A stretch of DNA of 64,000 nucleotides, taken from assembly GCA_026387335.1 (NCBI GenBank), contig JAPLLX010000001.1, forward strand, positions 16,489 through 80,488, in the 5' to 3' direction. The number at the start of each line of letters is the position of its first letter. Within the stretch, counting starts at the first letter, position 1. A program made the translations under genes and the position numbers. The DNA is from Candidatus Omnitrophota bacterium. GTDB taxonomy: Bacteria > Omnitrophota > Gorgyraeia > Gygaellales > Profunditerraquicolaceae. Of the stretch, positions 49,106 to 61,745 are shown piece after piece. The notes under the pieces are model-generated. The model made no database searches, was not told where the DNA came from, and worked only from the letters and a program-made list of their open reading frames with translations.

Positions 49106-49635
49106 AAAAGATGAATAAAATTCCTGGGTCAATTTTTATTTTATGCGCATTATTGATAGCAGGATTATTTTGTTCGGAATCTTTAGGCTCTATGCAATGG
49201 GATTATGATGCTTCCAAAGGGCCTGATGCAGGCTCGGCCAAGAATGTAGCGGTTAAGGATAGCGCTCTCCAGCAGGAGGCGGTCATCCGGCCTAAAGTTG
49301 AGTATAGGGCGCAGGGGTTAAAGGATCCTTTCCAGCCGCTGGTTATCGAAGAAGAGGCTGTCAACTCTGTAGTGGCCAGCCCGGTTAAAATAAAACAGTT
49401 GCCTGCTTTGACTATTCAGGGTTTAATCTGGGGAGGAGATTTTCCTCAGGCGATTATAAATAATAAAGTAGTAAAGATAGGAGACCAAATCGCAGACGCA
49501 GAAGTAGTAGCAATAGATAAAGAAGGGGTCATCTTGCTTTATGCCAACAAAAAATATAAATTGTCCTCTCCGGCCCTGATGGGCCCGCGGAAAGAAAAGC
49601 AAACAGAAGGAGGAAATAATGAGAAGTCAAATTAA
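49102..49635 (+). CDS. pilP: type IV pilus assembly lipoprotein PilP-like
   Basis: Signal/lipoprotein N-terminus. Conserved LKDPFQP motif characteristic of PilP. Position directly before secretin. Confidence 0.6.
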   Translation: MKKMNKIPGSIFILCALLIAGLFCSESLGSMQWDYDASKGPDAGSAKNVAVKDSALQQEAVIRPKVEYRAQGLKDPFQPLVIEEEAVNSVVASPVKIKQLPALTIQGLIWGGDFPQAIINNKVVKIGDQIADAEVVAIDKEGVILLYANKKYKLSSPALMGPRKEKQTEGGNNEKSN

Positions 49636-51172
49636 GTCAGTTGTTTTTATTTTCATTTTGCTCAGCCTTATTTTTGCCCACAGGGTAAGCGCCTCAGACG
49701 AGGCGTCTATTTTGAACGGTAGAGACTCGACCATCTCTATGGATTTACAGGATACGCCCCTAAAGAGCGTGCTGAAGCTTCTATCCATACAGTCGGGCTT
49801 AAATTTTATTGCTTCCGAGGGTCTCCAGGACAGGAGTATAACTTTGTATTTGGATAAGGTACCCTTGAAGGAGGCAATGGATAAGATATTCAAGGCGAAT
49901 AATCTCTCGTATGATTTAGACAAAGAGTCCAATATTTTCATTGTCAATGATTGGGGGAAGCCGACAACCCAGACCATAACTAAAGTTTTTTACTTAAAAC
50001 ATGCTACGGTTTCTTCTTCTTCATTGATGGAAGAGCTGAAAAACAATAAAGAAAACAATGCTACCAGTACTTCCAGCTATTCAACCAGTTCATCCAGTAG
50101 TTCTTCTTCAAGTACCACCGATAACGGCAAATGGAAAGTCGAAGAAGACGCGGGGATCACTCAGGTAGTAAAGAAGCTTTTATCAAAAGATGGTTCAGTA
50201 ATTGAGGATTTTCGCACCAACAGCCTTACGGTTACCGATACTCCTGGAAGGATTGAAGTTATCTCTCAGGTAATCGCCTCGTTGGATATTTCAATTCCGG
50301 AAGTCATGCTGGAAGTAGAGATGCTGGATGTAAGCAAAAATGTTGTGGATAAGTTAGGTTTTAAATTCGGCCAGACTCCCTTCTCAGTCGCCTTCACCGG
50401 CAGTACCGCGGCTGCCGGTTTTCCGTATCAGAGCTGGACAAAGATAATCGGAGGCGAAAGCTCTCTGGATGTAAACAACGCTAATACCGCCGGCGGCGCG
50501 TATAAAATACAGTTAGATTTTCTGCGCACACAGACAGACACCAAGTTTTTAGCTCGCCCCAGGATCATGACTCTGAATAACGAGACTGCCGAAATCAAGA
50601 TTACTTCTAATGAAACTATAGGTATAACCAGCATACAGCAGGGGCAGGGATCTGCGGCGTCCACTACTACCGAGGCGGAAAGGGCGGAGACAGGAGTAAG
50701 CTTAAGGGTTACTCCTCAAGTTGATGTGGAAGCCGGAGAAATTACGATGTTTATTATTCCTACGGTAAAAGATACCGCAGTCAGCTCCATTCCTATCGGC
50801 GGCACAGGCAGCAATTTTTATAAGGATCCGGAAGAGCGGACGACTAAGTCCACGGTGCGGGTTAAAGACGGAGAAACTGTTGTCCTGGGGGGCCTGATCC
50901 GCAACCAGAATACGACTATTGTTACCAAGCTGCCTATTTTAGGGGATATACCTTTATTGGGAATGCTCTTTAGGCATAAAGAACAGTCTCCGGGCAGAGA
51001 GCGCGAACTCTTGGTTTTTATAACCCCGCACATTATGAAAAACGTTAAGTCCGAGCCGACTCCGGTTAAGAAAAAAACAGTTCTCCCGTTAAGAGAACAG
51101 GCTAAATTTGTTCCTCTTACCCGGCAGCAGAACATTAGCGCCTATTTGAATAATTTTGATGCTAAGCGCTAA
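49619..51172 (+). CDS. pilQ: type IV pilus secretin PilQ
   Basis: Signal peptide. Secretin C-terminal domain (VVLGGLIRNQNTTIVTKLPILGDIPLLGMLFRHKEQSPGRERELLVFITPHI). Ser-rich low-complexity linker. Confidence 0.85.
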   Translation: MRSQIKSVVFIFILLSLIFAHRVSASDEASILNGRDSTISMDLQDTPLKSVLKLLSIQSGLNFIASEGLQDRSITLYLDKVPLKEAMDKIFKANNLSYDLDKESNIFIVNDWGKPTTQTITKVFYLKHATVSSSSLMEELKNNKENNATSTSSYSTSSSSSSSSSTTDNGKWKVEEDAGITQVVKKLLSKDGSVIEDFRTNSLTVTDTPGRIEVISQVIASLDISIPEVMLEVEMLDVSKNVVDKLGFKFGQTPFSVAFTGSTAAAGFPYQSWTKIIGGESSLDVNNANTAGGAYKIQLDFLRTQTDTKFLARPRIMTLNNETAEIKITSNETIGITSIQQGQGSAASTTTEAERAETGVSLRVTPQVDVEAGEITMFIIPTVKDTAVSSIPIGGTGSNFYKDPEERTTKSTVRVKDGETVVLGGLIRNQNTTIVTKLPILGDIPLLGMLFRHKEQSPGRERELLVFITPHIMKNVKSEPTPVKKKTVLPLREQAKFVPLTRQQNISAYLNNFDAKR

Positions 51173-51189
51173 ACTATACCCCGACATCT

Positions 51190-52923
51190 ATGTTGAATAA
51201 AGGAAGATACCTAAGGTTAGGCGAGCTTCTGGTCAAAGAAGGCTTACTTAACGAAGTCCAGCTGGAAAAAGCCATAGCCACTCAACGCCAGGAAGGCGGC
51301 AGGTTGGGTGAGGTATTGGTTAAGCTGGGCATTGTCAAAGAAGACCAGATGGTAGCGGTTTTAGGCAAGCAGCTGAATGTCCCCTATTTTTCGCTGGGCA
51401 CCGGGATGCTTAAACCCGCGGCAGACCAGGGCCTTGAGCGGCTTATCCCGCACGAGTTTGCCCTGAAGAATTCCATTCTGCCTTTGTCGCGCACTTTGCG
51501 TTCTTTAACCGTAGCTATGTCTGATCCGTTGGATCTGATCTTAATTGATAATTTAGGAAGGCTGACTAATTGCGAAATTAATCCGGTTATTGCCACAAAA
51601 TCCGATATTGTCAAGGCAATAGAAGATTTCTATGGTAAATCCGCGATGTTAAAACAAGCGGTAGACGCCAGCTATGATGTTTCTGCCGCTGACCTTGCCT
51701 CCGCGGCCACGACCGGGGAAGAAACGCCTGACCAGGAATTAAGTTTGGATAAATTAGTTGCCCGGGCCGAAGAAGCGCCGGTAGTAAAACTGGTGGATTT
51801 AATCATCAGACAGGCGATTGATGAGCGCGCTTCCGATATTCATATTGAGCCTTTTAATAATAAAATATCATTAAGATACCGTATTGACGGCAAATTGTAT
51901 GAAATACCTCCGCCGGCAAAACACCTGCATTTACCGATCATTTCGCGCATTAAAATTTTAGCCAAACTGGATATTGCCGAGAAACGTCTTCCTCAGGACG
52001 GAGCTTTTATGGTCAGGATCGGGGAAAGGCCCATAGATATCCGGGTTTCTTCAATACCTACGATATACGGAGAAAAAATCGCTATGCGGTTACTGGACCG
52101 CAGCCAGGTGGTCCTTGACCTTAACCAGTTGGGTTTTGATCTTAAACAGCTGGAGCTTATCCGTAAATGCATAAGTACTCCTTACGGTTTAATATTCCTG
52201 ACCGGGCCCACGGGTAGCGGCAAAACCACTACTTTGTACGCCATCTTAAATGAAATAAAGAGCCCCACTAAAAATATTGTTACAATTGAGGATCCTGTAG
52301 AGTATAAATTAGATGGGATTAATCAGGTGCAGATTAAGCCTGAAATAGGCCTGACTTTTGCTTCCGCCTTGCGCAGTTTCTTAAGGCAGGATCCTGATAT
52401 AATGCTGGTAGGAGAGGTGCGGGATTTAGAGACTGCCCAGATATGCGTACGTTCCGCTCTTACCGGGCGCCTGGTTTTAAGCACGCTACATACTAATGAT
52501 GCACCCACTGCCGTAAGCCGGCTTATGGATATAGGTATTGAGCCCTATATGCTTTCTTCGTCTCTAGTCGCGATAATATCCCAGCGTTTAGTAAGGAAAC
52601 TCTGTCCGGATTGTAAAGAGGCGTATGAATCCGGAGAGCAGGAGACCAAGAATATTAAATTAAAAGCAGAATTAATTTATAAGGCCAAAGGTTGCGCCAG
52701 CTGTAATAATACGGGCTATAAAGGCAGGATATGTATTTCCGAGATCATGATCCTGAATGAAGAACTGAAAAACCTGATCAGCCAAAGGGCTTCCTTCCAA
52801 AAGATAAGGGAGGTTGCCCGGGCTAACGGTATGCAGACTTTATACGAATCCGCGTTAAAAAAAGTAGAAGAAGGCTCGACTTCCCTGGAAGACGCGCTTT
52901 CGATTACTCTGGGGGCGGACTAA
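51190..52923 (+). CDS. pilB: type IV pilus assembly ATPase PilB (GspE family)
   Basis: N-terminal GspII_E domain. Walker A LTGPTGSGKTTTL. Asp box, His box, tetracysteine motif (CPDC...CASC). Confidence 0.9.
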   Translation: MLNKGRYLRLGELLVKEGLLNEVQLEKAIATQRQEGGRLGEVLVKLGIVKEDQMVAVLGKQLNVPYFSLGTGMLKPAADQGLERLIPHEFALKNSILPLSRTLRSLTVAMSDPLDLILIDNLGRLTNCEINPVIATKSDIVKAIEDFYGKSAMLKQAVDASYDVSAADLASAATTGEETPDQELSLDKLVARAEEAPVVKLVDLIIRQAIDERASDIHIEPFNNKISLRYRIDGKLYEIPPPAKHLHLPIISRIKILAKLDIAEKRLPQDGAFMVRIGERPIDIRVSSIPTIYGEKIAMRLLDRSQVVLDLNQLGFDLKQLELIRKCISTPYGLIFLTGPTGSGKTTTLYAILNEIKSPTKNIVTIEDPVEYKLDGINQVQIKPEIGLTFASALRSFLRQDPDIMLVGEVRDLETAQICVRSALTGRLVLSTLHTNDAPTAVSRLMDIGIEPYMLSSSLVAIISQRLVRKLCPDCKEAYESGEQETKNIKLKAELIYKAKGCASCNNTGYKGRICISEIMILNEELKNLISQRASFQKIREVARANGMQTLYESALKKVEEGSTSLEDALSITLGAD

Positions 52924-54167
52924 TGGCTAACTATTATTATATTGCCAGGAATAAGGCCGGAAATAAGATTAGCGGAGTTGAAGAAGGCTCGACCCAGGAT
53001 GAAGCGCTTAACCGGCTGCAGGCCAGAGGACTTGTGGTGGTGAGTATCTCTGTTGATGCGGGTAAAAATATCCCTACCCAGCCTGAAGCAAGCACGGGAG
53101 CAAAGGAAAAGGTCGGCTATAAACACAATAGGATTTCCGGGACGGATCTGACTCTTTTTTCCCGTCAGTTAGCCACGCTTTTGGGCGCCGGGGTAACTAT
53201 TCTAAAAAGCCTGAGTATTATCTCGCAGCAGGTCGCCAGTAAGCGTTTATACCTTGTGATTAAAGACTTGGAAAAAAATATGGAATCCGGTTTAAGCTTC
53301 CATGAGGCGATGGCTAAACACCCTGAGGTTTTTACTGAGCTTTGGATCCATCTGGTAGAGAGCGGAGAAGCCAGCGGTAACCTAGCGGTTGTTTTATCAC
53401 GCTTAGCCGGATACCTCGAGAGATACGCTTCTTTTAAGAAAAAAATTATATCCGCCCTGATTTATCCGGCGATACTATTTTGCGCCGGCATATTAGCGCT
53501 CTTGTTTATGACCATTAAGATCATTCCTACTTTTGCCGAAGTCTTCAGCGGTTTTAATATAAAACTGCCTTTTTTGACCCTTCTTTTGATTAGTGTAAGC
53601 AAGATCATTCGGGGGTATTTTTTGTTGATTATCGCGGTTTTAGTGGGAGCTATCTGGTTTTTCCGTAAGTTTATTTCGACTAAAAACGGCAAGAGGGCAT
53701 ATGAGGAATTCCTCTTGAAGTTGCCGGTCTTTGGAGAATTCTTTCATACTCTCATCATCGAGCGGTTCACTTCTGAGATGTCCACTCTTGTGGAAAGCGG
53801 GGTGCCCATACTTTATTCCCTGGAGATCGCGGAGCGCAGCGTGGATAACCTTGTTTTAGGGGAAATTGTCCGCAACATAAAGGATGATGTGCGGGAAGGA
53901 AAAGCTTTGGGTAAATCCCTGGAGAAGAGTAATTTTTTTGATCCGATGGCCGTGCAGATGATTAACATAGGAGAAGAAATCGGAGAATTATCCAACATGT
54001 TTAAGCGGCTGAATACATTTTATCAGGAATACCTGGATACGTTCCTGACCCGTTTTACCGCTATGTTTGAGCCGGTTATGCTGGTTTTTATCGGAGCGGT
54101 TATCGGCATAATGGTCATCGGGATGTTTTTGCCGATTTTTGAAATTTCTCAGATTGGCAGCAAGTAG
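52923..54167 (+). CDS. pilC: type IV pilus inner-membrane platform protein PilC (GspF family)
   Basis: Two GspF repeats with 3 TM helices. 414 aa. Confidence 0.9.
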   Translation: MANYYYIARNKAGNKISGVEEGSTQDEALNRLQARGLVVVSISVDAGKNIPTQPEASTGAKEKVGYKHNRISGTDLTLFSRQLATLLGAGVTILKSLSIISQQVASKRLYLVIKDLEKNMESGLSFHEAMAKHPEVFTELWIHLVESGEASGNLAVVLSRLAGYLERYASFKKKIISALIYPAILFCAGILALLFMTIKIIPTFAEVFSGFNIKLPFLTLLLISVSKIIRGYFLLIIAVLVGAIWFFRKFISTKNGKRAYEEFLLKLPVFGEFFHTLIIERFTSEMSTLVESGVPILYSLEIAERSVDNLVLGEIVRNIKDDVREGKALGKSLEKSNFFDPMAVQMINIGEEIGELSNMFKRLNTFYQEYLDTFLTRFTAMFEPVMLVFIGAVIGIMVIGMFLPIFEISQIGSK

Positions 54168-54174
54168 AAATGTT

Positions 54175-54203
54175 TTGTAATTCTTAAAAAATAGTATTAG
54201 AAT
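54175..54203 (+). promoter_or_regulatory. possible internal promoter TTGTAA-N17-TAGAAT upstream of the pilin gene block
   Basis: Located in the 86-nt pilC-pilin spacer. Confidence 0.3.
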
Positions 54204-54253
54204 ATAGGAGAGGGTGAGGTTAAAACAATAGCATAAAGAAGGGGGCGAGGAGA

Positions 54254-54646
54254 ATGAAAAAAAATAGGAAGGGTTTTACTTTAATCGAGTTGATTATTGT
54301 CGTCGTAATTGTAGGTATATTAGCCCTGGTCGCTATCCCGAGGTATTTCGCCAATATTGAGAAAGCCAGAAAAGCGGAAGCGCTTTCCAGTATGCGCTCT
54401 ATAAGAGAAGCGATAATGGGTTACTATGCCGCAAATAACGCTTATCCTACCGCGAATTCTTTCCCCATTACCGTAAATATTGACGGAGATGACGTAATGG
54501 TGGTAGAGCAGCCTTCTTCCACTAATTTTGCCTATAGCTACACTTCTACCGTGATTACAGCTGCGCATACAGGGGCAGGAGTCTGTACTTATACTATGAA
54601 TATCGCTTCCGGATCAATTGGTAAATCTCCCGCATCGTGCCCTTAG
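54254..54646 (+). CDS. type IV pilin-like protein (prepilin N-terminal cleavage/methylation domain), paralog 1
   Basis: MKKNRKG|FTLIELIIVVVIVGILA class III signal. C-terminal Cys pair (CTYT...SPASCP) forming a D-region loop. Confidence 0.8.
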   Translation: MKKNRKGFTLIELIIVVVIVGILALVAIPRYFANIEKARKAEALSSMRSIREAIMGYYAANNAYPTANSFPITVNIDGDDVMVVEQPSSTNFAYSYTSTVITAAHTGAGVCTYTMNIASGSIGKSPASCP

Positions 54647-54667
54647 TAGCTTAGGATATTTATAAAG

Positions 54668-55045
54668 ATGCCAAAACGGATTTATGCTTTTACGCTGATC
54701 GAATTAATTATCACGGTTGCAATCGTGTTGATTTTGGCGGGGTTTGCTTTAGTCAAGTATTCTAATGTTATTGAAAAGGCGCGCTCCGCAGAAGCCTACG
54801 CCGTATTAGCCGATATTGCTGCCGCGGAAAACGGTTATTATGTAGAGTATAATACTTATACTAATGTTTGGGCAAATCTGGATAGGTATAGTTCGGCACC
54901 GGTCAGCCAAAATTTTGATTTTTCTTCGGCTTTAAGCTCTTTGGGCAGTGGTTATGTACAGGCTACTCATGTTATCGGGACTCTAGACTATTATATGTGT
55001 ATAAAAGGAGGCGGCAAGGGGACAACTGCTCCGTCTTGCCCTTAA
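54668..55045 (+). CDS. type IV pilin-like protein, paralog 2 (Ala at -1)
   Basis: IYA|FTLIELIITVAIVLILA. C-terminal CIKGGGKGTTAPSCP. Confidence 0.75.
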   Translation: MPKRIYAFTLIELIITVAIVLILAGFALVKYSNVIEKARSAEAYAVLADIAAAENGYYVEYNTYTNVWANLDRYSSAPVSQNFDFSSALSSLGSGYVQATHVIGTLDYYMCIKGGGKGTTAPSCP

Positions 55046-55046
55046 G

Positions 55047-55463
55047 ATGAAGAAGAGAGGCGCCTTTACCCTGATTGAGCTTATTGTGGTAGTTGTAATA
55101 ATTATTACGCTGGCTTTAATAGCTATTCCCAGTTATAGCAAATCCAAGAACAGGGCAATACAAAAAGAAGCAATTTCCAACCTTAAGCTTATTGCGGCAG
55201 CGGAGAGAATATACAGGATGGAAAATAATGTTTATGTTGCCTGCAGTTGTTCTAGTCCTGCAGTTTGCGCCAATGCCACGACCGGATGCAACCCTTTGCT
55301 TAAACTTATGTTAAATAACGCTAACTGGTCCTATACCGTGACTGCTGCAGCCGGGACCAGCTGCGCAATTACGGCCGCGTCAACAGGCATAGGTTGCACC
55401 TATACTTTAAATAGCGCAGATTTTGACACCCTGGATTATTCAACGGCATCAGGCTGCAGTTAA
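55047..55463 (+). CDS. type IV pilin-like protein, paralog 3 (Ala at -1)
   Basis: KRGA|FTLIELIVVVVII. C-terminal Cys pair. Confidence 0.75.
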   Translation: MKKRGAFTLIELIVVVVIIITLALIAIPSYSKSKNRAIQKEAISNLKLIAAAERIYRMENNVYVACSCSSPAVCANATTGCNPLLKLMLNNANWSYTVTAAAGTSCAITAASTGIGCTYTLNSADFDTLDYSTASGCS

Positions 55464-55464
55464 C

Positions 55465-55794
55465 ATGAATAAAAGAGCCTTGACCCTGCTGGAAATTATT
55501 GTTTCTACGATTATCCTGGCTTTAGTTATGACGGGGTTGATTAATGTCATTGTAGCCGGCAGGCAGCTCCTCCAGCATAGCCGTAACCGTATGGGTGCGG
55601 GAGAAATAGGAAAGAGGTTTATTGATCCCCTCCAGAATCAGGTAAGACAGGACACCTGGAGCAGCAGTTGTTTCGGCACGGATAGCCTGACTAATTCCAT
55701 CAGCGGTATGTATACCGCTTCATATACTATCAACACGCATCCTTCCGACGCGCAGATCAAGAAAGTAAAGACCAAAGTAAGCTGGACAGAATAA
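55465..55794 (+). CDS. minor pilin / pseudopilin-like protein
   Basis: MNKRA|LTLLEIIVSTIILALV prepilin-like N-terminus. ATG 55465 overlaps the preceding stop. Confidence 0.5.
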   Translation: MNKRALTLLEIIVSTIILALVMTGLINVIVAGRQLLQHSRNRMGAGEIGKRFIDPLQNQVRQDTWSSSCFGTDSLTNSISGMYTASYTINTHPSDAQIKKVKTKVSWTE

Positions 55795-56378
55795 TGCCTC
55801 TTTATTCCCGGAAATCAATCACCCTTATAGAATTATTAATTGCGATGGTTTTGCTGGCGGTAATAATCTTAGCTATTAATAATGTGAATGTCTTCAGCCG
55901 TTATCATTTTATCTCTACTGACCGCCGGGCAAAAATCCAGAATGACGCCTCCCGCTGCCTTGAGCATATAACCAAATATGCCTCTCAGGCAATAGGCAAT
56001 GAGGCTGTTTTCGGAGGGGCCTCTGCCGTATATGCCGGCACTAATGTCCTGTCTTTTTTTATGGATGTCAACGCTAATGGTTTAAGGGATACGGCGGGCG
56101 AGGATTATTGGGTTGGTTACAGGCTCAATAATTCAACTTATCAACTTGGCTATTGTAGCCATTGTAGCGACTATTCTTGTTCGACTTGTAGCAGCGCTAT
56201 AGAATACTTGGCTAATGATATAACTGTTTTTTCCGCTACTAATAATGGCAATTACGTGAACGCGGATATCACTGCTTGTTGGAACCCCGCGGGAACTATA
56301 GCGGCCTGCAATACTCCGGATAACCCCAGCGTTACAATGAATTCCAGTATCCACTTACCCTCTGTCGCCACCAATTAA
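55794..56378 (+). CDS. minor pilin / pseudopilin-like protein with Cys cluster (CSHCSDYSCSTC)
   Basis: RKS|ITLIELLIAMVLLAVII prepilin-like N-terminus with Ser at -1. 194 aa. Confidence 0.5.
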   Translation: MPLYSRKSITLIELLIAMVLLAVIILAINNVNVFSRYHFISTDRRAKIQNDASRCLEHITKYASQAIGNEAVFGGASAVYAGTNVLSFFMDVNANGLRDTAGEDYWVGYRLNNSTYQLGYCSHCSDYSCSTCSSAIEYLANDITVFSATNNGNYVNADITACWNPAGTIAACNTPDNPSVTMNSSIHLPSVATN

Positions 56379-56454: not shown

Positions 56455-56530
56455 GGGGCTGTAGCTCAGCTGGGAGAGCGCCTCGTTCGCAACGAGGAGG
56501 CCAGGAGTTCGATCCTCCTCAGCTCCACCA
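56455..56530 (+). tRNA. tRNA-Ala (anticodon CGC)
   Basis: GGGGCTGTAGCTCAGCTGGGAGAGCGCCTCGTTCGCAACGAGGAGGCCAGGAGTTCGATCCTCCTCAGCTCCACCA. Cloverleaf with G3:U70 alanine identity pair, anticodon loop TTCGCAA, encoded CCA. Confidence 0.9.
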
Positions 56531-56605: not shown

Positions 56606-57721
56606 GTGCATACCGATATGAAGCATATTAATAAGTTAATCCTATCCACCGCGACCCTTTTTTCTTTATTTTTTCTTTGTATATTCCTACCCAGTCTATT
56701 CAGTTCTGAACAGCCGAAAGAAGCCTCATTCTACCAAAAGCTTAAGAACAATATAGTCCAATGCGGGCTTTGTCCCCGTCGCTGCACGATCCCTGAAGGC
56801 TTACGCGGGTATTGCCGGACGCGCGAAAACCGTAAGGGAGTATTGTATACTTTAGTTTACGCCAAACCCGTGGCGATACACATTGACCCTATAGAGAAAA
56901 AACCTCTGTTTCATTTCTTACCTTCGGCTAAGGCTTATTCTATCGCTACCGCGGGGTGCAACTTAAAATGTAAATTCTGCCAGAATTGGGAGATATCCCA
57001 GAGTAAACCCGAAGAGCTGGAGTATATTTATCTTACTCCAGCGGATTTAATAAAAAAGGTTAAAGAGTCAGGGACTGCGGTAATCGCTTACACCTATAAT
57101 GAGCCGACCATATTTTATGAATATATGCTGGAAACCGCCAAGCTCGCCCGTCAGCAGGGGATAAAGAATGTGATGCATTCTAACGGCTATATAAATGAGG
57201 CGCCGCTTAAGGAGCTAGCTAAATATCTTGACGCAGCTAATATTGACTTAAAGGGATTTAGCGAAGAATATTACGCAAAACTTACGGAAGGGAGCCTGGC
57301 GCCGGTATTAAATTCCCTTAAGGTATTAAAGAGCCAGGGTGTGCACATTGAGATAACTACCTTGCTTCTTTCCGGTTTTAACGACGACGCAGCCGTCTTA
57401 AAAAAGATGTGCCTTTGGATTAAGGACAATTTAGGCCCGGATACCCCGTTGCATTTTTCCAGGTTTTTCCCGATGTATAAATTGACTAGCCTTAACCCTA
57501 CTCCCCTAGATTCTCTTGAGCGGGCCAGAAGAATAGCCATTGAATGCGGATTAAAATATGTTTATATCGGCAATATTTCGCCGAATCCAGCGGAAAATAC
57601 GTATTGTCCCGGTTGCGGAAAAATAGTTATTGAGCGTAACGGTTATTTTGTTAGGCAGGACAACTTAAAAAAAGGAAGGTGCAAATTCTGTGGAGAAGAA
57701 ATTGCGGGTATATGGAATTAG
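56606..57721 (+). CDS. amrS: AmmeMemoRadiSam system radical SAM enzyme (AmrS) with an unusual ~30-aa N-terminal hydrophobic leader
   Basis: QCGLCPRRCTIPEGLRGYCRTREN...DPIEKKPLFHFLP...GCNLKCKFCQNWEIS: the AmrS-specific double Cys-cluster signature. Confidence 0.85.
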   Translation: MHTDMKHINKLILSTATLFSLFFLCIFLPSLFSSEQPKEASFYQKLKNNIVQCGLCPRRCTIPEGLRGYCRTRENRKGVLYTLVYAKPVAIHIDPIEKKPLFHFLPSAKAYSIATAGCNLKCKFCQNWEISQSKPEELEYIYLTPADLIKKVKESGTAVIAYTYNEPTIFYEYMLETAKLARQQGIKNVMHSNGYINEAPLKELAKYLDAANIDLKGFSEEYYAKLTEGSLAPVLNSLKVLKSQGVHIEITTLLLSGFNDDAAVLKKMCLWIKDNLGPDTPLHFSRFFPMYKLTSLNPTPLDSLERARRIAIECGLKYVYIGNISPNPAENTYCPGCGKIVIERNGYFVRQDNLKKGRCKFCGEEIAGIWN

Positions 57722-59168
57722 CGGGTTAATTTTTTTGTTTTTATTTTACACGCTGGCTTACTCGGAGAATATAAAAGAACCCTGCGTTGCCGGCACATTT
57801 TATCCGGATGACCCGGGGGAGTTATCCTTGATGATCGACACTTACCTTAAAAAAGCCGATCCTAAGCAATCGACTGCAGAGATATTCGCTTTAATCTCTC
57901 CTCACGCGGGTTACGGCTATTCCGGAGAGGTTGCCGCGTTTGGCTATAAACTGATTAAAGATAGGCCGTATAAGACGGTAGTCATCCTGGGTACAAGCCA
58001 CCGTTATTCTTTTAGCGGAGCTTCGGTTTACCCGCAAGGCGCATTTAAAACTCCGCTGGGCCTGGTCACAGTGGATAGTGAGTTTGCCGGAAAATTGCTG
58101 GGTAATGATCCGGAAATAATCTTTGCCGCGCAAGCCTTTAAAGAAGAGCATAGCGTAGAGGTGCAGCTGCCGTTTTTACAAAAGACGCTGGTTGATTTTA
58201 AGATTGTCCCGTTAGTTTTAGGTGATTGCACCTTATCTACTTGTAAAAGGTTAGCCAGCCTGCTGAATAAGGCGATCGGAGAGCGAAAAGATGTCTTAGT
58301 GATCGTTTCCACGGATATGTACCACGGATATGATTATGATGAGGCGGATAAGGTAGATAACCTTACTCTTAATGCCATAAGTAGTCTGGATGCCGAGGCC
58401 CTTTATTACGGCCTGCGCGACCAGAATTTACAGCTTTGCGGCGGCTTTGGCGCGGTAACTCTGCTTATGCTGGCCAAAAGCCTGGGCTATGACAAAATAA
58501 CGCTATTGAAGCATAGAAATTCCGCGGAAGTCACGGGAAATAAGAAAAAAGGTATTTGGACCGTAGGATACGCCAGCTGTGCGGTTAGCCAGCCAAAAGA
58601 AGGAGAAAGAGGCATGTTAAATAAATCCCAGAGAAAAAGATTACTGGAAATCGCGCGCAGTTCAATAGAAAAATATTTAAAGACGGGTAAGATTTTGGAG
58701 CTTACTGAACCTGACCCGTTCCTGTCAAAAGATATGGGGGCTTTTGTCACTTTGAATAAAAAGGGAGAGCTGCGCGGATGCATCGGCAATCTTATCGGCT
58801 CAAAAGCATTATATTTAACCATAAGGGATATGGCGGTTGCTGCCGCTACGGAAGATCCCCGTTTTAGCCGGGTAGAGCTTACGGAGCTAAAAGATATTAA
58901 TATTGAAATTTCTGTTTTATCTCCTATGGAGAGAATTGACAATCCTGATAAAATTAAACTTGGGGTTCACGGTGTTCTGGTGCGTAATGGTTTTAGAAGC
59001 GGGGTATTTCTCCCTCAGGTAGCTACTGAAACCGGTTGGTCTAAAGAGGAGTTTATGTCTAACCTGTGCCAACATAAAGCCGGGCTGGCCCCCGACGCCT
59101 GGAAAGATAAAGAGACCGAAATTTACATATTTAGCGCGGAAGTATTTTCAGAGAAAGAGCTTAAATAG
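57690..59168 (+). CDS. amrB: fusion of AmmeMemoRadiSam system protein B (MEMO1-like) and protein A (AMMECR1 domain), with N-terminal hydrophobic leader
   Basis: N-terminal half: GTFYPDDPGEL...ISPHAGYGYSG...ILGTSH (MEMO1/AmrB). C-terminal half: GAFVTLNKKGELRGCIGNL...EDPRFSRVE...GVFLPQVA (AMMECR1/AmrA). Confidence 0.8.
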   Translation: MEKKLRVYGISGLIFLFLFYTLAYSENIKEPCVAGTFYPDDPGELSLMIDTYLKKADPKQSTAEIFALISPHAGYGYSGEVAAFGYKLIKDRPYKTVVILGTSHRYSFSGASVYPQGAFKTPLGLVTVDSEFAGKLLGNDPEIIFAAQAFKEEHSVEVQLPFLQKTLVDFKIVPLVLGDCTLSTCKRLASLLNKAIGERKDVLVIVSTDMYHGYDYDEADKVDNLTLNAISSLDAEALYYGLRDQNLQLCGGFGAVTLLMLAKSLGYDKITLLKHRNSAEVTGNKKKGIWTVGYASCAVSQPKEGERGMLNKSQRKRLLEIARSSIEKYLKTGKILELTEPDPFLSKDMGAFVTLNKKGELRGCIGNLIGSKALYLTIRDMAVAAATEDPRFSRVELTELKDINIEISVLSPMERIDNPDKIKLGVHGVLVRNGFRSGVFLPQVATETGWSKEEFMSNLCQHKAGLAPDAWKDKETEIYIFSAEVFSEKELK

Positions 59169-59812
59169 TGGTTAAGGCAGCGGCGGAAAGTTTTATCCTC
59201 GGTTTATCGTTTGGCTGGGGGCCTTGTTTAGCCAGCTGCGGGCCGCTGCTTTTGGCCTATGTCGCCGGCACCAAAAAAGATGTTTTGCAAAGCGTGGGCG
59301 CCTATTTGCTATTTTCTCTTTCCCGGGTATTTGTTTATCTGGTTTTGGGGGCGTTAGTTTTCTTTTTAGGAAGATTTATTTTGGAAAGATCCGGCAGTTT
59401 TTTTAAATTTGTTTTGCTGGGTTCGGGAGTTTTTATTGTTTTGCTCGGGCTGCTTATGCTTTTAGGCCAAGAAATCAAATCCCATTCCTGCTCTTTTTTA
59501 TATAAGCATATTTTAGAAAAAGATAAAAAGAGCATAGTCATGCTTGGCCTGACTGCCGGATTATTGCCCTGCGCGCCGCTTATAACTATGTTTACCTATA
59601 CGGGGTTAGTTTCCCAGAACATTTTGGAAAATTTGTTATATACTTTAGCCTTCGGTTTAGGGACTGTTTTATCTCCTTTGATCATATTGGTGGCTTTAGC
59701 GGGAATATTGCCTAGACTGGTCAGGGGCGCTCTCCCTATGAAGTTATTTAATATTATCTGCGGCTTAATTATAATAATACTGGGCTTGCAATTAATCGGA
59801 AGGGCTGGCTAA
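59168..59812 (+). CDS. DsbD_2 / CcdA-like thiol:disulfide-transfer-type polytopic membrane protein
   Basis: Six hydrophobic helices. Cys motifs GLSFGWGPCLASCGP (TM1) and GLTAGLLPCAPL (TM4) resemble CcdA/DsbD SFxSPC and TPC motifs. Confidence 0.45.
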   Translation: MVKAAAESFILGLSFGWGPCLASCGPLLLAYVAGTKKDVLQSVGAYLLFSLSRVFVYLVLGALVFFLGRFILERSGSFFKFVLLGSGVFIVLLGLLMLLGQEIKSHSCSFLYKHILEKDKKSIVMLGLTAGLLPCAPLITMFTYTGLVSQNILENLLYTLAFGLGTVLSPLIILVALAGILPRLVRGALPMKLFNIICGLIIIILGLQLIGRAG

Positions 59813-60547
59813 ATGCATAAATTTTTTGTTCCCGCTGCGGGTATTTTGGCTGATAAAATAATTATTGAAGATAGAGAACAGACGCATCATATAAAAAATG
59901 TCCTTAAGCTTAAGGTGGGCGAGAAAGTAGCGGTCTTTGATGGATCCGGCAATGAGTATAATTGCGTTATCCGCGAGTTAAAAAATAAGATTTATCTTAA
60001 TATAGAAAAGAAGATCCCGGCTGATAATAGCCCAGAGAAAGTGAAATTGACTATTGCCTGCGCCATACCCAAAAAAGCCAAGATTGACGATATAATTGAT
60101 AAACTCGTGCAGCTAGGCGTATCCAGGATCATTCCTCTTATGACCGAGCGGGTAGTGGTGAAATTGGATAAACCTAAAGAGGCCTTACGTTATGAGCGCT
60201 GGAAGAAAATCGCGCTTAGCGCGGCTAAACAGTGTAAAAGGAATAGTCTGGTTGTAATTGAGCCGGTCAAAGATTTTAAAGATCTTATCAAGCAATCCCG
60301 GGAATTTGATTTAAAGCTTATCCCGCATTTACTCGGAGACCGGCAAAGCCTTAAGGAAATCCTCGCGGGCTCTGAGGCTTCCAACATATTAGTCCTGATT
60401 GGGCCGGAAGGCGATTTCTCCGAAAGAGAAGTAAGTCTGGCTATAGCTGCCGGATTTATTCCCGTTACGCTGGGGGATTTAGTCCTGCGTGTAGACACAG
60501 CGGCTATCGCAGCAGCCAGTTTTATTAGACTATATGCCCACCATTAA
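59813..60547 (+). CDS. rsmE: 16S rRNA (uracil1498-N3)-methyltransferase
   Basis: HKFFVP...HHI.NVLKLKVGEKVAVFDGSG.EY.C: RsmE PUA/SPOUT features. 244 aa. Confidence 0.85.
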   Translation: MHKFFVPAAGILADKIIIEDREQTHHIKNVLKLKVGEKVAVFDGSGNEYNCVIRELKNKIYLNIEKKIPADNSPEKVKLTIACAIPKKAKIDDIIDKLVQLGVSRIIPLMTERVVVKLDKPKEALRYERWKKIALSAAKQCKRNSLVVIEPVKDFKDLIKQSREFDLKLIPHLLGDRQSLKEILAGSEASNILVLIGPEGDFSEREVSLAIAAGFIPVTLGDLVLRVDTAAIAAASFIRLYAHH

Positions 60548-61745
60548 GTTCCATACCTTAGGTTGTAAAGTAAACCAATACGATACCCAGAGCATAAGAG
60601 AGCGTTTTCTGGAACATGGTTTCAGGGAGGCTGGGCCTGGGGAAAAGTCAGATTTTTATCTCATAAATACCTGCACTGTTACGGCCATAGCGGATCAAAA
60701 GTCGCGCGGGATCATCCATAGGTGCATCAATGAAAACCCTGGAGCAAAAGTAATTGTTACCGGTTGCCTGGTTAAAAAAGACAGAAGCCAGTTAACTAAA
60801 ATAAAAGGGGTCAGTTTTATCATAGAAAAAAGTTTTTTTGCCGAAGGAATAAGCAATTTCTGTTCGCATACTCGCGCATTCTTAAAGATTCAGGATGGCT
60901 GCGATAATTTCTGTTCTTATTGTAAAGTGCCTTTAGCCCGCGGGCGTTCAAGAAGCAAACCCTTAGAAGATGTAGTTAGAGAGGCGGCCAGGTTAGCCAA
61001 GAACGGGTTTAAAGAGATTGTCCTTACCGGGATTTGTTTGGGTAGCTATGGCCGGGATTTAAATCCTAAAATAAGCCTGGTTAAGGCGATTGAGGCGCTG
61101 GAAAAGATAGATAAAATCGTCAGGATAAGATTAAGTTCAATTGAAGCGGGAGACGTGACTAGCGCTTTGATCGAGAAGATGGCTAAATCTAGAAAGCTCT
61201 GCCCGCATTTACATATACCCATTCAAAGCGGCGATGACGAGATCTTAAAGAAGATGCGGCGCAGGTATTCGGCTGCTTTCTACCTTAAGCTTATCGGGAA
61301 AGCCAGAAAAAAGATCCCCAATTTAGCTATCACTACAGATTGCCTTGTCGGTTTCCCAGGGGAGCTGGAAAGGCATTTTAGGAACACCTTAAATTTAGTT
61401 AGAAAAATTTCTCCTTTAAGGGTGCACATATTTCCTTATTCCGCCAGGGAAGGGACTTTGGCTTATTCAAGTTTATCCGGGAGTATTCCGGCGCCCGTTA
61501 TAAGAGAGCGTGTTTCCAGGCTTAAAGAAGCCGCTGATTTAAGCGCTCAAAGCTATAAAAAGCTCTTTCTGGGTCGAAATCTACCCGTGCTCTTTGAGGC
61601 CAGGTCAAAAGAAATGAAAGGTTGTTGGGAAGGCTATGCGGATAATTATATAAAAGTCTTGTTTAAATCCCGGGGAATTTTAAGAAATAGATTAATCCGC
61701 GTAAGGCTTAAAGCGTTAGTAAAAGATGCTGTCTTAGCTTCTTAA
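60534..61745 (+). CDS. mtaB: MiaB-like tRNA methylthiotransferase, probably threonylcarbamoyladenosine methylthiotransferase MtaB
   Basis: UPF0004 N-terminal domain (TLGCKVNQYD...INTCTVT). Radical SAM CxxxCxxC (CDNFCSYC). rsmE-mtaB order as in Bacillus yqeU-yqeV. Confidence 0.75.
   Translation: MPTIKFHTLGCKVNQYDTQSIRERFLEHGFREAGPGEKSDFYLINTCTVTAIADQKSRGIIHRCINENPGAKVIVTGCLVKKDRSQLTKIKGVSFIIEKSFFAEGISNFCSHTRAFLKIQDGCDNFCSYCKVPLARGRSRSKPLEDVVREAARLAKNGFKEIVLTGICLGSYGRDLNPKISLVKAIEALEKIDKIVRIRLSSIEAGDVTSALIEKMAKSRKLCPHLHIPIQSGDDEILKKMRRRYSAAFYLKLIGKARKKIPNLAITTDCLVGFPGELERHFRNTLNLVRKISPLRVHIFPYSAREGTLAYSSLSGSIPAPVIRERVSRLKEAADLSAQSYKKLFLGRNLPVLFEARSKEMKGCWEGYADNYIKVLFKSRGILRNRLIRVRLKALVKDAVLAS

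Follow-up and report, generated by a model that had tools for sequence, protein, structure and literature searches.

An AmmeMemoRadiSam variant with predicted export leaders and a CcdA-like membrane partner in Candidatus Omnitrophota

Within a 64,000-nt stretch of Candidatus Omnitrophota DNA (hereafter the window), a tightly packed block of (+)-strand genes encodes an AmmeMemoRadiSam system, comprising the radical S-adenosylmethionine (SAM) enzyme AmrS and an AmrB-AmrA fusion protein (AmrBA), followed directly by a DsbD_2/CcdA-like membrane protein and then by RsmE and MtaB. On evidence obtained entirely in silico, we judge at slightly better than an even chance that this is an exported variant of the system, to which DsbD_2 would supply reducing power across the membrane.

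Results

AmrS (367 aa; 56618..57721, +) was recognized by TIGR04337 (374.5 bits against a cut-off of 220), by the Radical_SAM domain PF04055 and by the starts of its homologues. AmrBA (492 aa; 57690..59168, +), whose start overlaps the end of AmrS by 32 nt, scores 261.9 bits with TIGR04336 (AmrB; cut-off 26) and 183.6 bits with TIGR04335 (AmrA; cut-off 99), and the GTG start of DsbD_2 (214 aa; 59168..59812, +; PF13386, 85.9 bits, cut-off 24.9) overlaps its stop by 1 nt. An earlier note on this DNA had assigned the same three identities, and all of them pass curated thresholds; for each of the three proteins, the closest homologues bear the name Candidatus Omnitrophota or Omnitrophica. The fusion described in that note is likewise real, the 492-aa polypeptide joining a Memo domain (aa 30-296; 57777..58577, +; PF01875, 210.7 bits), whose PHAGY, GTSH and DMYH motifs align to human MEMO1 (3bcz), to an AMMECR1 domain (aa 319-486; 58644..59147, +; PF01871, 195.1 bits) with 1vaj and 1zq7 as PDB relatives. 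Such a fusion is not new, as public annotation already reads 'protein B/protein A'.

The diagnostic cysteine signatures reported for AmrS are present, and their conservation was judged on a 27-sequence alignment, with residues counted from ATG 56618. The radical SAM CX3CX2C motif (C114/C118/C121; 56957..56980, +) is invariant, and both an N-terminal auxiliary group (C49-x2-C52-x3-C56...C66; 56762..56815, +) and a C-terminal CxxC...CxxC (C330/C333/C355/C358; 57605..57691, +), a putative zinc-ribbon or cluster-like module, are invariant or nearly so. Among solved structures, the AmrS core comes nearest to pyruvate formate-lyase activating enzyme (3c8f/3cb8), a distant relative (E 2.6e-6) that is cytoplasmic and has neither the AmrS leader nor the extra N- and C-terminal cysteine modules.

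Both AmrS and AmrBA begin with hydrophobic leaders. The TIGR04337 model starts at residue 41 of the 371-aa AmrS open reading frame (ORF; numbered here from GTG 56606), and the only in-frame ATG, GTG or TTG codons upstream of the domain are GTG 56606, the longest possible start, and ATG 56618. The latter is most likely the true start, because homologues are 367 aa long and begin MKN or MKH. The predicted export leader (aa 1-29; 56618..56704, +), supported by hydropathy, conservation and the lack of an internal start, opens with MKHINK as its n-region and continues into a hydrophobic core, L7-F28, within which lies C21-I-F-L-P25 (hydropathy 2.25; Kyte-Doolittle, 19-aa window). Candidate starts for AmrBA are GTG 57690, TTG 57702 and TTG 57735, the last of which lies inside the hydrophobic stretch, and the next one, at 57828, would truncate the Memo domain. 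GTG 57690 has a Shine-Dalgarno-like GGAAGG 10 nt upstream, and homologues open with MEKK or MGKK. From this start, AmrBA carries a predicted signal peptide for the general secretory (Sec) pathway (aa 1-25, MEKKLRVYGISGLIFLFLFYTLAYS, followed by EN; 57690..57764, +) with a tripartite n/h/c layout and a hydropathy of 1.74 on the same scale.

Scored down to about 62-67% identity, the leaders are present in 112/120 AmrS and 104/120 AmrBA homologues, which bears out the earlier observation that both proteins have hydrophobic N-termini; the start-codon scan agrees that neither has a usable internal start downstream of the hydrophobic segment. Mis-called starts were rejected as the origin of the leaders, since alternative starts are lacking and over 100 homologues of either protein retain the leaders. 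In both sets the n-regions carry a positive charge (+1.1 for AmrS, +2.2 for AmrBA), whereas the C-terminal flanks are neutral or negative. In AmrBA homologues, a core of ~18 aa leads to a cleavage site with S, C, G or A at -3, F or Y at -2 and Ala at -1 in 96 of 116 sequences, followed by Q/E-D-I-K-x-P. The window protein has A-Y-S25 before E-N, with predicted cleavage five to six residues ahead of the Memo domain, and the whole looks like a textbook cleavable signal for Sec and signal peptidase I.

AmrS leaders follow the pattern F-x-L-[IL]-x-x-C-[FI]-[YF]-L-P-x-[IL]-x-[AS]/[QED], the slash marking the putative signal peptidase I site. The cysteine position is fixed in 72 of 109 homologues (C21 in the window), and counting from it, position +6 is I or L and position +8 is A, S, T or G in 69/72. 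In the window the corresponding [IL]-x-[AS] site after the conserved C-x-x-L-P is L27-F-S29, ahead of S30, and the leader may either be cleaved near S29 or be kept as an anchor. The earlier note read both leaders as signal anchors of a membrane-tethered variant; the hydrophobic segments are genuine and tethering is possible, but the signal peptidase I-type sites in both AmrBA and AmrS make them look like export signals, so that 'exported, possibly tethered' fits better than 'membrane-tethered'.

Among the 72 AmrS homologues with the fixed cysteine, the C-x-x-L-P stretch (window 56678-56692) retains its Pro in 61 and its Leu in 57, conservation far above what is usual for signal peptides. The motif resembles the Cys-Pro transmembrane (TM) motifs of DsbD_2 and may be a docking or redox element. 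A lipoprotein reading of this cysteine is not supported: no more than 24 of the 72 homologues carry a strict lipobox ([LVI][ASTVI][GAS]C where the hydrophobic core ends), and the window sequence reads F-F-L-C21. A twin-arginine translocation (Tat) reading of the window leader was rejected: this leader begins MKHINKLILS, lacks RR and has a very hydrophobic core.

Leaders of this kind extend well beyond the window: the variant, which the earlier note called unusual, is not confined to this locus and is part of a large leader-bearing clade, mostly of the twin-arginine type. An exhaustive HMMER search returned 8,625 AmrS relatives. Among the best 150 representatives, 70 have no leader and correspond to the classical form (~335 aa, starting MKEALFY), at least 23 bear canonical twin-arginine signals, 6 have Sec/TM-type leaders and 14 have long N-terminal fusions. 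In a survey of 80 species-level loci, AmrS has a Sec/TM-like leader in 11, with cleavable-looking Sec peptides in L009 and L010 and TM anchors in L015, L016 and L019; a Tat-like leader ([KR]R-x-F-[LI]-K) in 31, where canonical S/T-[RK]-R-x-F-[LI]-K signals precede the same catalytic domain; and no leader in 38. Such switching between kinds of export signal is commonly seen in proteins that are truly exported. In a neighbour-joining tree, the Tat- and Sec/TM-type proteins group in a single clade, separate from the classical forms and joined by a few members that are secondarily leaderless. Every AmrB-AmrA gene found near a leader-bearing AmrS (18 loci) encodes a fusion that has a signal peptide of its own, and separate leaderless AmrB and AmrA genes accompany leaderless AmrS in L046 and L087; the B-A fusion is the norm in the leader-bearing clade.

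Natural fusions, read from the Pfam domains of AmrS representatives, bear on which side of the membrane AmrS works. P0245 and P0207 combine AmrS, AmrB and AmrA behind a single N-terminal leader, with the AmrBA signal peptide deleted and no TM helix between AmrS and AmrBA; in P0207 the AmrS C-terminus is joined straight to the predicted mature N-terminus of AmrBA (..IAGVWD-YIKQPNAAGAFYP). With one leader, all three domains must end up in the same compartment, reached via the leader of AmrS. Nor does any TM helix separate FMN_bind from AmrS in the TM-FMN_bind-AmrS proteins P0246 and P0250, and in the DsbD_2-AmrS fusions P0247 and P0254, AmrS comes directly after the sixth TM helix, at the predicted outward C-terminus of DsbD_2. 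Further fusions place AmrS behind FMN_bind and a NapH-like module (P0241, P0243) or behind DsbD_2, FMN_bind and a NapH-like module (P0252); in P0243 and P0252, AmrS lies one TM helix beyond the cytoplasmic CX3CP loop of the NapH-like part, and in L015, L016 and L019 the same arrangement is split at that loop, leaving the MKxxK-TM leader of a free AmrS. The FMN_bind domains of these AmrS-linked modules carry the SGAT flavinylation motif and are accompanied by CX3CP membrane helices. Where FMN_bind domains precede NapH-like proteins they lie outside the cytosol, and the FMN_bind/NapH-like module is a modular electron route across the membrane to outside oxidoreductases (PMC8238504, Meheust et al. 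2021). From this fusion topology, the positive n-regions, the Tat signals of sister lineages and the secreted AmrBA, the AmrS domain of the leader-bearing clade most likely sits outside the cytoplasm.

Alternatively, AmrS could be anchored N-out/C-in and face the cytoplasm, with only AmrBA exported and DsbD_2 bridging the membrane, perhaps as a conduit for electrons or a thiol-bound intermediate to the periplasmic AmrBA. SAM, reductant and iron-sulfur (Fe-S) assembly would then stay where they are known to be; the window leader has no twin arginine, the charges flanking the anchor of P0245 are ambiguous, and in five loci (L029, L031, L050, L055 and L066) a leaderless AmrS stands beside a signal-bearing AmrBA. 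We nevertheless consider this arrangement distinctly improbable: MKHINK is positive and the C-flank neutral, which speaks for N-in; a single leader serves each triple fusion, with no intervening TM helix; free AmrBA bears a classical cleavable signal; AmrS lies on the same side as FMN_bind, judging by the TM-FMN_bind-AmrS and DsbD_2-AmrS fusions; and sister lineages use Tat signals.

Two further features of relatives touch on the location of AmrS. In P0249 (681 aa) and P0251 (919 aa), AmrS follows a CBM_11 carbohydrate-binding domain or a PorZ/Reg_prop-like beta-propeller in the same polypeptide; domains of this sort are usual in secreted and surface proteins, a hint of a glycan or envelope substrate. 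Between a Tat-like leader and the AmrS domain, L039 and P0261 have CxxCH (CGDCH, CLACH), the signature of c-type haem attachment, which would fit an outside location with haem-mediated electron input.

The candidate membrane partner, DsbD_2, has six TM helices by hydropathy, with which the AlphaFold2 helices agree. Its first helix contains G18-P-C20-L-A-S-C24-G-P26 (GPCxxxCGP; 59219..59245, +), of which C20, C24, G25 and P26 are invariant in a 34-sequence alignment; its fourth contains the invariant P134-C135-A-P137 (PCxP; 59567..59578, +); and C198 in TM6 is near-invariant. The protein is a 3+3 internal repeat (hhalign of the N- against the C-terminal half: probability 84%, E 8e-6, 31% identity) in which C20 aligns with C135, and Cys-Pro motifs of this type recur in the AmrS-fused versions. 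Loop charges, hydropathy and the fusions predict an N-out/C-out topology, which fits the fusions in which FMN_bind comes after TM6. The fold resembles that of solved CcdA (5vkv), with 185 residues aligned, and no structural match ranks above CcdA, which has the most complete coverage and is tied with RnfA/NqrE, although Foldseek against the PDB returned no significant match (E 0.04 and above) and phmmer against PDB sequences no match at E<=10, solved CcdA/DsbD included. With RnfA/RnfE and NqrD/NqrE, just 137-138 residues align; RnfA and NqrE hold an intramembrane Fe-S centre, and nothing in DsbD_2 indicates a metal centre. Compared with CcdA/DsbD, the protein matches the Pfam DsbD_2 model and not DsbD_TM (PF02683 is listed for many homologues, faint or weak where its strength is stated), has CxxxC in TM1 instead of a single Cys and the fourth Cys in TM6, and apparently serves a radical SAM enzyme and not an apocytochrome or Dsb protein. 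The neighbour is, as first described, a six-TM protein of the CcdA/DsbD type with Cys motifs, and the coupling to transmembrane electron or thiol transfer suggested for it is backed by its CcdA-like fold and by the FMN_bind and NapH/NosR-like fusions.

Many relatives in the LysE superfamily are solute or metal transporters, and an exported system might instead use DsbD_2 in that capacity, to bring out SAM or Fe/S or to remove methionine or 5'-deoxyadenosine. We think this unlikely given the CcdA-type signature with an invariant Cys-Pro in the first helix of each repeat, the coverage of the CcdA match (tied, as noted, with RnfA/NqrE), and the repeated occurrence of the protein in one polypeptide with FMN_bind and NapH-like electron-transfer modules.

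The survey showed a sharp association between DsbD_2 and leader type. DsbD_2 lies within 7 kb of AmrS in 11/11 Sec/TM-type loci and in 0/69 others (0 of the 31 Tat-like and 0 of the 38 leaderless), with a Fisher p of about 1e-13 that treats as independent loci that are not. The linked loci have at least four gene orders, in bins labelled Omnitrophota, Planctomycetales, Chlamydiae, UBP3 and Auribacterota. Synteny with RsmE and MtaB is confined to the window's own Omnitrophota lineage, and the linkage of DsbD_2 to AmrS occurs with other gene orders and without these two genes in L011, L012, L015, L016, L019, L020, L022 and L036; DsbD_2 follows AmrS directly in L011, L012 and L020, and a DsbD_2-FMN_bind-NapH-like protein stands immediately 5' of the TM-anchored AmrS in L015, L016 and L019. 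In the reverse look-up, DsbD_2 homologues at 44-48% identity again sit behind AmrS-AmrBA. The earlier note had left the synteny of this neighbour as a question, which the survey answers in its favour.

That the whole pattern is an artefact, with mis-called starts and a DsbD_2 gene that is a chance neighbour through lineage-wide synteny, would accord with the own-lineage block, which is wholly syntenic from the type II secretion genes to MtaB, so that adjacency there proves little. We give this explanation very little credence: no alternative starts exist, the leaders are conserved with position-specific motifs, and DsbD_2 is linked in other lineages and fused to AmrS in P0247, P0252 and P0254. 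As the whole neighbourhood is syntenic within its own lineage, the case for DsbD_2 rests on those other lineages and fusions. A predicted functional link between DsbD_2 and AmrS is supported by the synteny in several phylum-level lineages whose gene orders differ, the reverse synteny down to 44% identity and the DsbD_2-AmrS fusions.

In one Omnitrophota relative, L002, the DsbD_2 slot (L002:8854-9570) is occupied by a 238-aa protein that has no precomputed Pfam match, scores 242 bits with a purpose-built DsbD_2 hidden Markov model and has an insertion ahead of the last helix; precomputed annotations thus under-count the family.

In the mechanism that we propose, the AmrS leader would target Sec and insert N-in/C-out, placing the radical SAM domain on the periplasmic face, where it would either be held by the uncleaved leader or be released by cleavage near S29. 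AmrBA would be exported through its classical cleavable signal peptide and join AmrS outside. DsbD_2, whose two 3-TM repeats each open with a helix that bears a Cys-Pro motif, would move reducing equivalents outward from the cytoplasm. These might keep the ~12 cluster-ligand cysteines of Sec-exported apo-AmrS reduced for cluster building, much as CcdA keeps apocytochrome c reduced, or they might feed electrons into the catalytic cycle, as the fused FMN_bind/NapH-like modules suggest. Sister lineages would export folded, cluster-loaded AmrS through Tat, without DsbD_2. Tat leaders without DsbD_2 and Sec/TM leaders with it are strictly complementary, a pattern suggesting that DsbD_2 makes up for what Tat export would otherwise offer: an enzyme that is reduced and competent for its clusters. 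The sequences themselves show the gene identities, the conserved leaders, the association with DsbD_2, the fusion architectures and the fold and repeat of DsbD_2; from them we infer the topology, the way in which electrons would flow and the chemistry involved, and the co-localization of the proteins in this organism.

A number of points weigh against this mechanism. To our knowledge, no radical SAM enzyme works outside the cytoplasm; SAM, low-potential reductant and the Fe-S assembly machinery are cytoplasmic as far as we know, and we know of no mechanism by which SAM could be supplied, low-potential electrons provided or Fe-S clusters assembled outside. The reducing power of a thiol/disulfide carrier falls short of what a radical SAM cluster needs. 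Twin arginine occurs in only 2/112 AmrS leaders of the window's lineage, and the lack of RR together with the strong hydrophobicity points to Sec export of unfolded apo-AmrS with its ~12 cluster or zinc cysteines. The five loci with leaderless AmrS beside signal-bearing AmrBA mean that co-localization is not universal. The loci surveyed are the closest relatives of the query and phylogenetically non-independent, and in the window's own lineage synteny spans everything from the type II secretion genes through MtaB. Signal, Tat and topology calls came from hydropathy and motif scripts with inspection and not from dedicated predictors; for sister AmrS proteins, Pfam Tat-signal models gave only insignificant matches, so that the Tat calls are motif inspection. 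Finally, no thioredoxin-like gene adjoins DsbD_2, its next neighbours being RsmE and MtaB (the window as a whole was not scanned for such genes), FMN_bind and NapH-like domains had no match in any ORF of the window at E<=0.1, and ApbE was not found in it.

Upstream of AmrS lies a tRNA-Ala(CGC) gene (56455..56530, +; ARAGORN), at the edge of the block and outside the system. Behind DsbD_2, RsmE (59813..60547, +) and MtaB (60534..61745, +), both assigned by Pfam and NCBIfam, are housekeeping genes that probably do not belong to the system. No small gene for a peptide substrate was found next to the block, its neighbours being the tRNA, pseudopilins, RsmE and MtaB. Directly upstream, at 49619-56378, is a type II secretion or type IV pilus-like cluster comprising a 517-aa ORF (49619-51172; not profile-scanned) in the position of the secretin gene of L002-L004, a GspE-like ATPase (51190-52923), a GspF-like protein (52923-54167) and five pseudopilin-like genes (54254-56378). 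The cluster remains syntenic with the Amr block in the Omnitrophota relatives L002-L004, L089 and L090, which may reflect a functional linkage or mere lineage-wide gene order.

A 'fused MFS/spermidine synthase' (NF037959/PRK03612-like) membrane protein of 700-820 aa is a recurrent neighbour of leader-bearing AmrS, found at 5 of the 11 Sec/TM-like loci, 22 of the 31 Tat-like loci and 2 of the 38 leaderless loci. Examples are L045:4642-6774, L056:4406-6829, L006:7181-9547(-), L012:3579-5747 and L020:8794-10977, with ~25 other loci, and in Bacteroidales a 107-109-aa TM protein is often encoded 5' of the gene. Its role could be to deal with SAM, or with a by-product of SAM, at the membrane; neither tblastn nor phmmer found a match to it in the window.

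Both forms of the system can occur together. In L060 (811-2662 and 2673-7996), a leaderless AmrS with a leaderless AmrB lies beside a Tat-type AmrS with a secreted AmrBA, and in L017 (5607-6602 and 7001-7999) a leaderless and a Tat-type AmrS are side by side. The presence of both versions in one genome marks the putatively exported system as a paralogous second system and not a replacement. The leaderless AmrS proteins of L029, L031, L050, L055 and L066 are short and also lack the KEAxFY N-terminal strand, and L055 has FMN_bind, NapH-like and spermidine-synthase-like neighbours.

Discussion

The window system shares with classical AmmeMemoRadiSam the same three domains side by side, the same AmrS Cys motifs and the same Memo metal-site motifs. 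Classical systems such as that of L087 are leaderless, usually have separate AmrB and AmrA and have no membrane partner, whereas here both proteins bear predicted export leaders, B and A are fused, DsbD_2 is attached and AmrS belongs to a separate clade. The NapH/NosR-like and FMN_bind module that is fused to or adjoins AmrS in relatives (L015, L016, L019, L055; P0241, P0243, P0252) is represented in the window only by its DsbD_2 part. As in Tat-exported iron-sulfur enzymes, sister AmrS proteins have canonical twin-arginine signals ahead of an Fe-S-rich domain; the window protein differs in its strongly hydrophobic Sec-type leader without RR.

In the literature, a search for 'AmmeMemoRadiSam' returned only incidental mentions and no functional study of the family, and no paper came to light that deals with radical SAM enzymes in the periplasm or with secreted or exported ones. 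Nor was any found on export signals of AmmeMemoRadiSam or on its link to DsbD_2 or NapH-like proteins, in a search that did not extend to Burroughs et al. 2019 (JBC), reportedly the context paper for Memo, AMMECR1 and radical SAM. Radical SAM, Memo and AMMECR1 are not mentioned in PMC8238504, and the part of its supplement covered here has no relevant entries for Memo, AMMECR1 or DsbD_2.

Beyond the window, we tentatively entertain, at somewhat less than an even chance, that a large clade runs radical SAM chemistry outside the cytoplasm, exporting either holo-AmrS via Tat or apo-AmrS via Sec, the latter matured or powered through a DsbD_2 conduit that flavinylated NapH-like modules extend in some relatives. 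Together with secreted MEMO/AMMECR1, the enzyme would work on a substrate in the cell envelope. Conservation of AMMECR1 and MEMO1 reaches from archaea to humans, both are linked to disease, and the prokaryotic radical SAM partner is the main clue to their biochemistry. An exported AmrS would call into question the view that radical SAM enzymes are confined to the cytoplasm. If the proposal holds, AmrS would be the first radical SAM enzyme at work outside the cytoplasm; this would imply delivery of SAM to the outside and, for the Sec type, periplasmic insertion of Fe-S clusters, and would raise new questions about SAM export, the supply of low-potential electrons and periplasmic Fe-S assembly. 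If it does not, the leaders and fusions would still define a new membrane-associated architecture of AmmeMemoRadiSam. The Sec or Tat signals of the leader-bearing clade, with its wiring to transmembrane electron-transfer modules, predict a cell-envelope substrate, and the analysis names candidate partners: DsbD_2, the FMN_bind/NapH-like modules and the membrane-bound spermidine-synthase-like protein.

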